Assembly: GCA_027021195.1 (NCBI GenBank)
Contig: JALUUW010000003.1
Span: forward strand, 4,843-68,842
Reading direction: 5' to 3'
DNA length: 64,000 nt
Source of the DNA: Candidatus Pacearchaeota archaeon
GTDB lineage: Archaea; Nanobdellota; Nanobdellia; Pacearchaeales; GW2011-AR1
In this document: positions 62,894-63,917 of the stretch, one piece after another
Position numbering within the stretch: position 1 is the stretch's first letter
Layout: each line of letters opens with the position of its first letter
Position numbers and translations under genes: made by a program
Notes under the pieces: model-generated
Told to the model about the DNA's origin: nothing
Databases searched by the model: none
Seen by the model: the letters and a program-made list of their open reading frames with translations, nothing else

Positions 62894-62912
62894 GTTTATG
62901 CTCTGCCCGCAG
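62894..62912. repeat. 19-bp direct repeat, left copy (gtttatgctctgcccgcag)
   Basis: Matches 63899..63917 at 18/19 positions in the same orientation. Confidence 0.8.
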
Positions 62913-63132
62913 TCCTTCAGACAATTTGCTGGAACTTTGTTACATCTAAATTTTTCTGATATTCGTTGAGAATTTTATAAAAGAGAAAGTTAATATACCT
63001 ATAAGAAGATTGAGCTCTTTCTCTCAAATGCAATCTGTTAAACAGGCACACGAGGGAAAGGAAGAAATACAAACGAAGAAGGGTAAAATAAGGCTTCTAA
63101 CCGCAGCAAAGTTGCATGGCATATGGATTAAA

Positions 63133-63462
63133 TCAATACCTAAATCTTCTTTCATAATCTTTATGGCTCATCCATTCAAGGATAATTGACAGTATTGTAA
63201 TTTCCCCATTAGCCACAGAATAAATCAATCGCCAACCTTTTGGCAAATCATATTTCCAGATATTATCAATTCCATATTTCTCAATGTAAGCTTTTGGAAT
63301 TAATCTTTTTTGTATCCTTATTCCACAAAAGGCGTTTTCCTCTAAATCTTCAAAAGCTCTACAAATCCATTTGTATAATTTTTGATCTTCTGTTTTTGAT
63401 TCTTTTAAAGCCTCAAAACTCTTCTGAATCTTCTCGTCAGCAAATTTGATTTCAGATTTCAT
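63133..63462 (-). CDS. RelE/ParE-superfamily toxin
   Basis: IWKYDLPKGWRLIYSVANGEITILSIILEWMSHKDYERRF. The ATG at 63462 forms an ATGA overlap with the antitoxin stop. The track start at 63471 is a TTG. Confidence 0.6.
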   Translation of the reverse strand: MKSEIKFADEKIQKSFEALKESKTEDQKLYKWICRAFEDLEENAFCGIRIQKRLIPKAYIEKYGIDNIWKYDLPKGWRLIYSVANGEITILSIILEWMSHKDYERRFRY

Positions 63463-63743
63463 TTTCTCCAACTTAGATGAGGCTTAGACAGGTATTTTTT
63501 TACAAGTTCCGGATTCCAAATCCAGACAACCCATCCTTCTTTGTCTTGTGCTATTTTTCCAGACTCCAACAAATAGTCAAAAATTACACAGAAAGTTTGG
63601 TAAATCATTTTTTTAGGCAGTGCTTCCCAAAGAGATTTTTTCTTGTATTCCCCGGAATTTTCTCTAATAAACTCCTCTACCATCAGAATAGTATCTAATT
63701 GTGGATAGTGCAAAATATTTCTTTTTGATATTTCTTGTGGCAT
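63459..63743 (-). CDS. putative antitoxin (94 aa, wHTH-like)
   Basis: Lies upstream of and is translationally coupled to the toxin. The ATG at 63743 is chosen because the longer track ORF (to 63923) runs through the right direct repeat and looks non-coding. Confidence 0.45.
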   Translation of the reverse strand: MPQEISKRNILHYPQLDTILMVEEFIRENSGEYKKKSLWEALPKKMIYQTFCVIFDYLLESGKIAQDKEGWVVWIWNPELVKKYLSKPHLSWRK

Positions 63744-63898
63744 GGTTATACATACTTGTATAACTATTAAAATCTTTCGGTTTTCAAAAAATCCTTCTTT
63801 CTCCAAAAAAGAAACAAAAAACCCTTTCTCAGATATACTGGAACGTTTCACGTGCCAGCTTGCTCTCTTTTTTAGAATTTCATCCTTGCAACATGGCT

Positions 63899-63917
63899 GT
63901 TTATGCTCTGCCTGCAG
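63899..63917. repeat. 19-bp direct repeat, right copy (gtttatgctctgcctgcag)
   Basis: See 62894..62912. It lies 2 nt downstream of the stop of the partial gene at the window edge. Confidence 0.8.

Follow-up and report, generated by a model that had tools for sequence, protein, structure and literature searches.

A toxin-antitoxin operon flanked by 19-bp direct repeats, and its empty insertion site, in an uncultured Pacearchaeota archaeon

An uncultured, genome-reduced archaeon of the Pacearchaeota (DPANN) carries a toxin-antitoxin (TA) operon bounded by 19-bp direct repeats between its genes for a family-B DNA polymerase (polB) and an RsmB/F (NOL1/NOP2/Sun) RNA methyltransferase (NSUN), and the same junction is found without the operon in a scaffold from another sample. 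The insertion is real: both alleles are observed and the junctions are exact, with a difference of 1,005 bp (a 986-nt insert plus one copy of the repeat). The event most probably ran in the direction of gain, and we give roughly even odds (about 0.5) to a recent, strain-specific gain through duplication-generating insertion of a mobile TA operon, which we prefer over recombination at a shared att core. An earlier, sequence-only reading had proposed site-specific or duplication-generating insertion as the way in which the TA module arrived, and the empty allele supports arrival by insertion.

Both repeats lie near the end of the window (the whole stretch of DNA that was analysed, 64 kb), to which L001, a contig that continues past this end, is identical over 4715 nt. 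The polB-proximal copy (GTTTATGCTCTGCCTGCAG, 63899-63917; CTGCAGGCAGAGCATAAAC on the minus strand) begins 2 nt past the polB stop codon, as the sequence-only reading had it, and the NSUN-proximal copy (GTTTATGCTCTGCCCGCAG, 62894-62912; CTGCGGGCAGAGCATAAAC on the minus strand) lies where it had been placed, at 39 rather than 40 nt upstream of the NSUN ATG. The two 19-mers are in direct orientation and match at 18 of 19 positions, the NSUN-proximal copy having G, not A, at position 5 of the minus-strand reading. Of the bordering genes, both on the minus strand, polB is upstream (3' end at 63920-64000, stop codon 63920-63922; 825 aa in full, called with Pfam DNA_pol_B_exo1 and DNA_pol_B) and NSUN downstream (61838-62854, ATG at 62854; Pfam Methyltr_RsmB-F, E = 2e-55). 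With up to 3 mismatches allowed, the 19-mer occurs only twice in the window and 0 times in 100 shuffles, which agrees with the positions and degree of match first reported. A match this good somewhere in 64 kb had been judged not very improbable, and rightly: direct 18/19 pairs within 3 kb arose at a mean of 0.225 per Markov-simulated 64-kb sequence, so that window-wide the pair is only mildly unusual. The other such pairs in the real window fall in paralogous genes at 55.7-59.7 kb, with two exceptions (a pair at 321/432 and one low-complexity pair). Chance is dismissed for the repeats because of independent evidence, the empty-site allele.

The search for an empty site in a related genome had been set as a test beforehand, and the site was found in L062, a 1.9-kb scaffold that is the single one to carry the empty allele. 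Its order is polB 3' end, TGA, GC, CTGCAGGCAGAGCATAAAC, AAC, TAAGGAAAATATT... and NSUN, with the cassette absent; the lone 19-mer is an exact match to the polB-proximal copy, and the spacer measures 64 nt, close to the ~60 nt predicted for a site without the insert. L062 is 97.1% identical in nucleotides to the occupied lineage (NSUN, 99% in amino acids). Aligned to L001, it falls into two blocks (1-56 = 2559-2614 and 37-1946 = 3600-5505) that have exactly the 19-mer and 1 further nt in common, and the boundaries of the indel coincide with the repeat. In this alignment the native spacer with the NSUN promoter (AAAATATTAAAAG..., 62855-62893, minus strand) is intact despite the insertion and the same in the empty allele.

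The occupied state could instead be ancestral, L062 then being a precise deletion between pre-existing 19-bp repeats or an assembly artefact that skipped the insert, a scenario that we consider very improbable. Direct repeats do promote deletions, and L062 is short, reaching only 36 nt to the polB side of the repeat; it is the one scaffold behind the empty allele. However, L062 derives from another sample, and its alignment to L001 (1,910 nt) has 51 differing positions and 2 gap openings, an AAC slippage variant beside the repeat among them, which makes it a genuine separate haplotype. Assemblers, too, work with k > 19. A pre-existing 18/19 repeat at exactly these positions would be improbable (~0.2 pairs expected per 64 kb), and even a deletion would still need an origin for the repeats. 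The relatives also speak for a gain. The polB-NSUN region was compared in 13 of them and its synteny is kept in all 13, across a gap of 0 to 3.3 kb that is under 100 nt and almost empty in four and filled with unrelated cargo in nine; thus the TA pair, absent at the site in the nearest relatives, is not ancestral there.

The 986 nt between the repeats hold the antitoxin/toxin operon and non-coding DNA and nothing else, as had been read from the sequence at the outset. All features of the insert lie on the minus strand. A putative archaeal-type promoter (aaaaccgaaagattttaata, BRE/TATA-like, 63765-63784), kept in every aligned copy of the family, sits ~27 nt upstream of the antitoxin ATG, a distance that implies a leaderless mRNA. 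Between TATA box and ATG, the sequence contains a perfect 8-nt inverted repeat (GTTATACA-N4-TGTATAAC, 63745-63764) that is kept in L046, L051, L052, L063, L064, L069 and L070, with changes mainly in the N4 spacer; it is probably the operator at which the antitoxin would bind and repress. The ~45-nt promoter/operator segment as a whole is almost identical across all cassettes. The antitoxin (94 aa, 63459-63743) matched no Pfam or NCBIfam family and has 1025 homologues, the best 120 of these 1025 being 73-90% identical. Its AF2 model (pLDDT 74) retrieved IclR/CggR/MarR/PadR winged helices with Foldseek (prob ~0.99, E ~0.05), and we predict a DNA-binding winged-helix protein of an uncharacterised family with about a thousand members.

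The toxin gene (109 aa, 63133-63462) overlaps the end of the antitoxin gene at an ATGA and is translationally coupled to it. In its AF2 model (pLDDT 82.5, pTM 0.73) the predicted chain adopts the compact alpha/beta fold of the RelE/ParE superfamily (beta-alpha-alpha-beta-beta-beta-alpha), and the top 45 Foldseek matches in the PDB are all of RelE/YoeB/ParE/HigB/YafQ type (prob up to 1.0, TM 0.55-0.75). The initial label of a RelE-type toxin thus holds at the level of superfamily fold and fails at that of sequence profiles: Pfam YoeB_toxin scored 18 bits (cut-off 27; E = 0.003) and ParE_toxin 16.6 (cut-off 23), the NCBIfam RelE_StbE/Txe_YoeB models stayed below threshold at 13.9 (cut-off 27.9) and 13.5 (cut-off 51.8), and a PDB profile search reached YoeB at E = 0.038. 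All family-invariant residues are present, and a C-terminal helix H-x2-YE-x-RF-x-Y is conserved. The toxin may be a ribosome-dependent mRNase or a ParE-like gyrase poison, two activities that are not distinguishable here.

As in type II systems, the small genes are adjacent, co-oriented and overlapping and come with a conserved palindrome, and antitoxin and toxin occur together at every locus fetched. With the RelE/ParE superfamily systems (YoeB-YefM, RelBE, ParDE, aRelE-aRelB) the operon shares the antitoxin-first order with ATGA overlap, the toxin fold, a palindromic operator overlapping the promoter and a patchy distribution through horizontal transfer. It differs from them in its winged-helix antitoxin, unlike the YefM/Phd, RelB (RHH), ParD and HigA types, and in a toxin that stays below the YoeB/RelE/ParE profile thresholds and carries the conserved C-terminal helix. 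A 154-aa open reading frame links the 19-mer in frame to the antitoxin; we rejected it as a real N-terminal domain, and the similar extensions called in some homologues amount to translation of promoter and T-tract DNA rather than a conserved domain.

The 77-nt non-coding 5' end of the insert (63822-63898) has no counterpart at any other locus examined, and blastn homology to other TA loci never begins before position 2691 of L001. It is followed by a T-rich tract (GGGTTTTTTGTTTCTTTTTTGG..., 63785-63821), common only to the cassette copies of L072 and L073, which by analogy with what is known of archaeal oligo-T terminators may act as terminator or insulator. The 3' end (220 nt, 62913-63132, the length noted from the start) is T-rich past the toxin stop, possibly as a terminator, and blastn found it at no other TA locus. 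Its first ~44 nt resemble window positions 6626-6669 (82%), and this 44-nt patch is all that blastn and tblastx against all fetched loci returned for the two flanks, their donor not being found. Folded as single-stranded DNA, neither flank is significantly structured (z = -1.13 against shuffles for the 5' end, 0.31 for the 3' end), and an Rfam search without a match even at E <= 1 ruled out a known RNA in them. Terminal inverted repeats were rejected: none at the two insert ends is convincing, and the nearest candidate (13/16, 63884-63899 against the internal 63104-63119) is no better than many chance pairs. As claimed originally, no recombinase is encoded in the insert, nor did tblastn with three tyrosine recombinases find one in the 64-kb window. 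No second TA copy was found in the window, and between polB and NSUN the cassette stands alone.

The operon core is 73-86% identical in nucleotides and 80-92% in amino acids in more than 10 unrelated contexts, among them L051, where the adjoining polB is just 49% identical; on this sequence comparison the operon is horizontally mobile. What other genomes have in common is the ~655-bp core from promoter to toxin stop, not the full 986-bp insert. Among these other contexts, no flanking repeats of at least 14 nt were found in L051, L052, L064 and L068, and nothing in L071; the best that L070 offers is a weak match of 15 nt with one mismatch, and the contigs of L063 and L069 stop too near the toxin stop for the comparison. 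This scarcity of flanking repeats of at least 14 nt, L046 excepted, speaks against duplication. L046/L047 are the sole contexts with flanking repeats, of ~185 nt. L046 is laid out as U-TA1-U-TA2-U-MNT/HepT, with ~185-nt spacers (U) that are 97% identical around far more diverged TA modules, which points to homologous recombination rather than a duplication of fixed length. A tyrosine-recombinase fragment begins 3 nt past the toxin stop in L073, and a tyrosine-recombinase gene or fragment lies 1.8 kb downstream in L065; another is present in L071. A viral or plasmid vehicle was rejected, IMG/VR and PLSDB holding no relatives of the cassette. Some homologues come from MAGs labelled Sedimentisphaerales or Phycisphaerae; we do not claim cross-domain transfer for them, as mis-binning is possible and their contigs (34-37% GC) have the same archaeal TATA/leaderless promoter.

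Exact matches to the 19-mer were found in 26 metagenome contigs and 2 viral contigs, all single-copy and in unrelated GC-rich DNA, in keeping with our estimate that, in collections this large, a pattern of 18 bases has a few tens of chance matches. Genes for polB, NSUN and the antitoxin are absent from all of these contigs; in L033, a distant toxin-like match (27% identity) lies ~1.4 kb from the 19-mer copy. At up to 4 mismatches, the 19-mer was found neither in the polB-NSUN region of the 13 relatives nor at any other locus of the TA family. The prospect that it is a common motif, terminator or promoter element, raised earlier as what would undo the insertion reading, is ruled out by its two window copies and its lack of conservation after polB in the 13 relatives; the distances to the downstream start codons are also unequal (39 nt and 155 nt). 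Single-copy, unrelated matches likewise rule out a widespread att site. Present in the empty allele and without counterpart at other family copies, the 19-mer is, as far as these comparisons reach, native to the target. By inspection, it (CTGCRGGCAGAGCATAAAC) has no dyad symmetry past CTGC/GCAG.

These properties bear on an att-type route, in which a 1,005-bp circular cassette with attP core CTGCGGGCAGAGCATAAAC would have recombined with an identical chromosomal core downstream of polB with the enzyme, a tyrosine recombinase (XerA-like or an integrase), supplied from another part of the genome. In that case the 19-mers would represent attL and attR, renewed excision of the cassette would be possible, and the circular junction (3' flank, 19-mer, 5' flank) would read ...TGTCTGAAGGA-CTGCGGGCAGAGCATAAAC-AGCCATGTTGC.... 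We hold this route to be possible, though rather unlikely. As with an att element, the core stands at both junctions (18/19 match) and once in the empty site, and a length of 19 bp is usual among tyrosine-recombinase identity segments. A crossover 3' of position 5 would be in keeping with the single-nucleotide pattern, in which the polB-side copy has the A of the empty allele and the NSUN-side copy G, and recombinase genes or fragments occur near the family copies of L073, L065 and L071. On the other side, the core would have to match an intergenic sequence that is lineage-specific and non-conserved, since the relatives' sequence after polB is entirely different, and nothing 19-mer-like stands at other family loci, the direct donor itself not being found. 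The 19-mer also lacks the dyad symmetry seen in recombinase core sites, the 64-kb window is without a recombinase, and the family is absent from the viral contigs and plasmids searched.

Recombination or gene conversion between short shared segments (promoter boxes, duplicated spacers) might also move TA modules among DPANN genomes, the 19-mer serving here as the patch for a Campbell-type single crossover of a circle that had left this site in a sister cell. The near-identical spacers around diverged modules in L046 are best explained by homologous recombination or conversion, and the ~45-nt promoter/operator segment of all cassettes is a potential homology patch. Yet such a process would cover spread within a population, not the first origin of the second 19-mer; 19 nt of identity between foreign DNA and target is very improbable by chance, and six other contexts show no repeat around the family. 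We regard this route as doubtful here.

Under the duplication-generating insertion that we favour, a self-contained mobile TA operon would have entered the spacer of 61-64 nt that separates the polB stop from the NSUN promoter, bringing in order a T-tract, TATA box, palindromic operator, winged-helix antitoxin, ATGA-coupled toxin and T-rich tail. The event would have doubled 19 bp of native target, by staggered-break fill-in or replicative template switch, which would place target sequence at both junctions. As the insert has neither a recombinase gene nor terminal inverted repeats, catalysis would have come from host repair or from an enzyme acting in trans, and the one A/G mismatch between the two repeats would have arisen by substitution afterwards. 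That mismatch is equally compatible with an att core borne by a donor, a point against duplication. Against this explanation, too, we know of no enzyme family that typically yields a 19-bp target duplication without terminal inverted repeats. Once installed, the module would presumably serve for addiction or defence in the classical type II manner, with the antitoxin sitting on the operator to keep its own leaderless operon repressed and the toxin released when the labile antitoxin is lost. The duplication and all of these activities are our inferences.

Known mobile systems resemble the cassette in part. Archaeal integrons and CALINs have been reported in Nanoarchaeota, with TA proteins a major cargo at 10.5% of annotated archaeal cassette proteins (PMC9668308). 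Integron cassettes can likewise be ~1-kb, promoter-carrying TA units without a recombinase of their own, and L046 likewise forms a cassette-like array of TA modules split by a repeated spacer. However, they end 3' in an attC site (an imperfect hairpin of 55-141 nt with R''/L''-L'/R' boxes) and have intI/attI or an attC array nearby; here the cassette is alone, inspection of the flanks found no RYYYAAC...GTTRRRY (R''/R') pair, and with the flanks and the L046 spacer lacking a stable imperfect hairpin (z = 0.50 for the spacer) an integron cassette was rejected. To our knowledge, integron recombination makes no 19-bp direct duplication of its target. pdif/Xer modules and IMEX are also small TA modules with short, specific bounding sequences and a recombinase in trans; they lack a recombinase, often carry TA genes and are moved by host XerC/D at dif-like sites. 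Such sites are 28 bp long, two ~11-bp arms being inverted across a 6-bp spacer, and they flank pdif modules in inverted orientation, whereas the 19-mer, inspected against these features, has no such symmetry and its copies are direct. Insertion sequences, MITEs and casposons share the direct target duplication around the insert and the single copy in the empty site; they differ in that terminal inverted repeats, a transposase and Cas1 are lacking here, and known target-site duplications span 2-15 bp, as against 19 bp.

The mobility of TA modules was already known, but a bare two-gene module moving without a carrier is rarely caught in the act, and here the occupied and empty alleles are both seen at single-nucleotide resolution in an uncultured DPANN archaeon. 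A 19-bp duplication without recombinase, inverted repeats or attC fits neither insertion sequences nor integrons, dif modules or integrase islands. If it was a one-off repair accident, we are looking at an ordinary strain-level indel with an ordinary addiction module. More speculatively, and with only a small chance of being right in our view, a DPANN family of minimal (~0.65-1 kb) TA mini-cassettes might hop between genomes into intergenic spacers by an undescribed, trans-supplied mechanism that duplicates ~19 bp or uses short homology. Each would combine a RelE-fold toxin and a winged-helix antitoxin from an undescribed family with a TATA box and an operator; lacking attC and dif sites, they would be archaeal counterparts of integron cassettes or pdif modules, and would also build arrays such as that of L046. 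Should the pattern recur, it would suggest that a repair-based or trans-acting route of insertion shapes the accessory genes of very small archaeal genomes, and this route could conveniently be studied at the conserved polB-NSUN junction as a hot spot.

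Two 19-mers, one on the NSUN (RsmB/F RNA methyltransferase) side (62894-62912, GTTTATGCTCTGCCCGCAG) and one on the side of polB, the polymerase gene at the window edge (63899-63917, GTTTATGCTCTGCCTGCAG), match at 18 of 19 positions in direct orientation, exactly as the sequence-only reading had described. They are the sole copies across the 64-kb window at up to three mismatches, and 100 shuffles yielded none at that threshold. The right copy lies 2 nt from the polB stop codon (63920-63922) and the left copy 39 nt from the NSUN start (62854). Between them, on the minus strand, are only the 94-aa antitoxin gene (63459-63743), the 109-aa toxin gene (63133-63462, ATGA overlap) and non-coding DNA, and the gene coordinates thus match the proposed geometry of repeats hugging the two neighboring genes. 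By itself, the pair is no more than mildly unusual: 64-kb sequences simulated from a Markov model hold a mean of 0.225 direct 18/19 pairs up to 3 kb apart. The remaining 18/19 direct pairs of the real window fall inside paralogous genes at 55.7-59.7 kb, except for one low-complexity pair and a repeat near the window start (321-339 and 432-450, AAAAAAATAGTGGATTTTA and AAAAAAATAGTGGAATTTA, spaced 111 nt). The run at 55743-59710 has a constant spacing of 2602-2605 nt (also 819 and 1786 nt), indicating tandem paralogous genes with internal repeats.

The sequence-only reading had proposed that the toxin-antitoxin (TA) module arrived by site-specific or duplication-generating insertion, with an empty site as the test; such a site was found, which supports that proposal. 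Among 2,508 NSUN homologues a single close one exists (P0241, 99% aa identity; next best 72%), on a scaffold (L062) from a separate sample (ENA ERZ23495063). There, the polB 3' end (...GACTTTTGA) is followed by GC, CTGCAGGCAGAGCATAAAC, AAC, TAAGGAAAATATTAAAAGC... and the NSUN ATG, that is, one 19-mer without the cassette. For comparison we used L001, a 7.2-kb Logan contig retrieved by exact-protein look-up, which is identical to the window and runs beyond its end, revealing the complete edge gene as a family-B DNA polymerase of 825 aa. The two are 97.1% identical across 1,910 nt and align in two blocks (L062 1-56 with L001 2559-2614, and L062 37-1946 with L001 3600-5505) whose overlap consists of precisely the 19-mer and one further nucleotide. 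The L062 19-mer has the A variant of the polB-proximal copy; its AAC AAC, where L001 has AAC, is a simple slippage difference between lineages that diverge by 3%. Strains thus differ in whether they carry these 1,005 bp (the 986-nt insert and one repeat), a real polymorphism, documented on the empty side by one 1.9-kb scaffold that starts 36 nt ahead of the repeat. Its ends coincide with the repeat, which rules out chance as the origin of the pair. A secondary deletion, or an assembly artefact, would be a very improbable account of this pattern.

With the NSUN protein as query, a scan of GTDB genomes yielded 16 loci (60-69% aa identity) in MAGs of Pacearchaeota, Woesearchaeota and Nanoarchaeota, where the order polB-NSUN-PUA-MetAP is kept and the polB-NSUN gap varies. 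Across L002-L014, this gap is practically empty in four loci (-5 to 96 nt) and holds 0.47-3.3 kb of unrelated genes in nine (for example L007:2710-6000, L011:2879-6000 and L003:4592-6000), among them ZIP-type transporters, membrane proteins, a deaminase, a response regulator, a protease and a NUDIX/radical-SAM block. Across Pacearchaeota this junction is thus a hot spot where accessory DNA collects, and the TA pair was not part of its ancestral state. No flanking repeats surround the cargo of these relatives, and no 19-mer-like sequence lies 3' of their polB. In one relative (L008:3758-4833) polB itself is interrupted, the alignment covering residues 1-629 and then 593-825 with ~1.07 kb between, perhaps an intein or some other insert.

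How, then, did the repeat arise? Its presence in the empty allele shows the 19-mer to be native to the target. At up to four mismatches it is absent from all other TA-family loci and from the relatives with an examined polB-NSUN region, and exact matches in large collections are all compatible with chance, in GC-rich DNA. As had been noted, no recombinase was detected in the insert or the 64-kb window. Duplication-generating insertion, in which the 19-mer target would be copied to both ends by fill-in of a staggered break or by replicative template switch, is thus the most parsimonious origin, at a probability of roughly one half. Att-type integration by a tyrosine recombinase acting in trans is compatible with the SNP pattern of the 19-mers, and other TA-family copies, in L065, L071 and L073, have recombinase genes or fragments nearby; we hold it to be rather unlikely, because an element-borne core would need to match a lineage-specific, non-conserved intergenic sequence. 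In L073 (775-1035), an 86-aa tyrosine recombinase C-terminal fragment begins 3 nt past the toxin stop of a related TA copy; it shares 47% identity with the L065 XerA-like gene and retains the HxLRH and LLGH motifs. The TA core there seems either to adjoin a recombinase gene or to interrupt one.

Short-homology recombination is more doubtful still; its support comes from L046:3515-5333 (also L047 and L048), an array U-TA1-U-TA2-U-MNT/HepT in which the ~185-nt spacer U stands three times (97% and ~70-87% identity), each 5' of a different TA module. Within U lie a TATA box, the initial ~30 nt of a divergent DUF1616-like membrane gene and the intergenic region of that gene; U forms no hairpin (z = 0.50). 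Similarity among these spacers far exceeds that among the TA genes (about 70-80% nt in parts), suggesting conversion or recombination.

The TA core itself is widely shared. Homologues number 427 for the toxin and 1,025 for the antitoxin, the best 120 of each showing 72-90% identity at equal length. In over 10 distinct genomic settings, DNA similar to the window (73-86%) begins 35-78 nt 5' of the antitoxin ATG and ends at the toxin stop codon. On one contig (L051) polB is 49% identical to that of the window while the TA proteins reach 89-90%, clear evidence from sequence comparison for horizontal transfer of the operon. Neither the viral contigs of IMG/VR nor the plasmids of PLSDB yielded TA relatives. 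Some homologues lie in Planctomycetota-labelled MAGs; we do not claim cross-domain spread, because the GC of these contigs (0.34-0.37) is DPANN-like and they share the archaeal promoter of the window copy. Two contigs of one Phycisphaerae-labelled MAG (L070:5163-8577 and L071:5164-8483) have in common a segment of at least 3.4 kb (96-97% identity, differing surroundings) with the TA pair, a Y4jL_N gene and a DUF5678 gene, and one copy adjoins HamA/helicase (Hachiman-like) genes and a phage-type integrase; given their GC of 0.34-0.35 and archaeal-type TA promoter, the bacterial label may be a binning error.

The insert ends (5' 77 nt, 63822-63898; 3' 220 nt, 62913-63132) are unmatched in other loci save for one 44-nt patch. 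Within the window, a 630-nt stretch without long ORFs (6171-6801), 3' of a radical-SAM gene (5109-6170), contains a 44-nt patch (6626-6669) 82% similar to 63093-63136, just past the toxin stop, with a perfect hairpin (CCGCAG-CTCTG-CTGCGG). Also in this stretch, 32 nt (6584-6615) perfectly duplicate 11601-11632, which lies inside a 1247-aa gene. At ~6215-6392 on the minus strand there is a small Cys-rich ORF (...CDPCDACGPDACYADD...), whose product might serve the radical-SAM enzyme as a peptide substrate.

The toxin yields a confident AlphaFold model (pLDDT 82.5), and its best 45 listed PDB structural neighbors are all RelE/YoeB/ParE/HigB/YafQ-type toxins (probability up to 1.0, TM up to 0.75). 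All profile matches stay below threshold (Pfam YoeB E = 0.003, ParE E = 0.012; NCBIfam E ~0.06; PDB YoeB E = 0.038), so the earlier "RelE-type" assignment holds at the superfamily level and not as a sequence family; the toxin may act as an mRNase or be ParE-like. The antitoxin matches no Pfam or NCBIfam family, and its model (pLDDT 74) is a winged helix resembling IclR/CggR/MarR/PadR DNA-binding domains. We class the operon as a predicted type II TA module of the RelE/ParE superfamily; its winged-helix antitoxin is unusual and uncharacterised. Directly 5' of the antitoxin ATG lies a perfect palindrome (GTTATACA-N4-TGTATAAC, 63745-63764), preceded by a BRE/TATA-like box (aaaaccgaaagattttaata, 63765-63784), both kept in every aligned copy of the family. 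A putative archaeal promoter ~27 nt from the start codon implies a leaderless mRNA, and the position of the palindrome as a putative operator implies autorepression. A 154-aa TTG-start ORF (63459-63923, minus strand) reads from the polB stop codon into the antitoxin in one frame, crossing the 19-mer, a T-tract and the promoter; comparable extensions are annotated on several database homologues (113-153 aa), and we rejected them as a conserved domain, the translated promoter DNA being a gene-calling artefact.

Integron TA cassettes have been reported from Nanoarchaeota (PMC9668308), and both these and pdif modules resemble the insert as small modules without their own recombinase. Unlike integron cassettes, it has no array, no intI and no attC, its flanks being unstructured as single strands. 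The insert has no Rfam match. The 19-mer shows no dyad symmetry by inspection and is therefore not dif-like, whereas dif modules have dyad-symmetric 28-bp sites. No convincing terminal inverted repeats were found, in contrast to IS and MITE elements. We would describe the insert as a TA islet with a 19-bp target duplication; what sets it apart is the length of the duplicated native sequence in the absence of any recognisable machinery for mobility. Should this insertion pattern recur in DPANN genomes, which we think improbable, the finding would gain weight; the strain-level gain of an addiction or defence module at the polB-NSUN junction is well documented.
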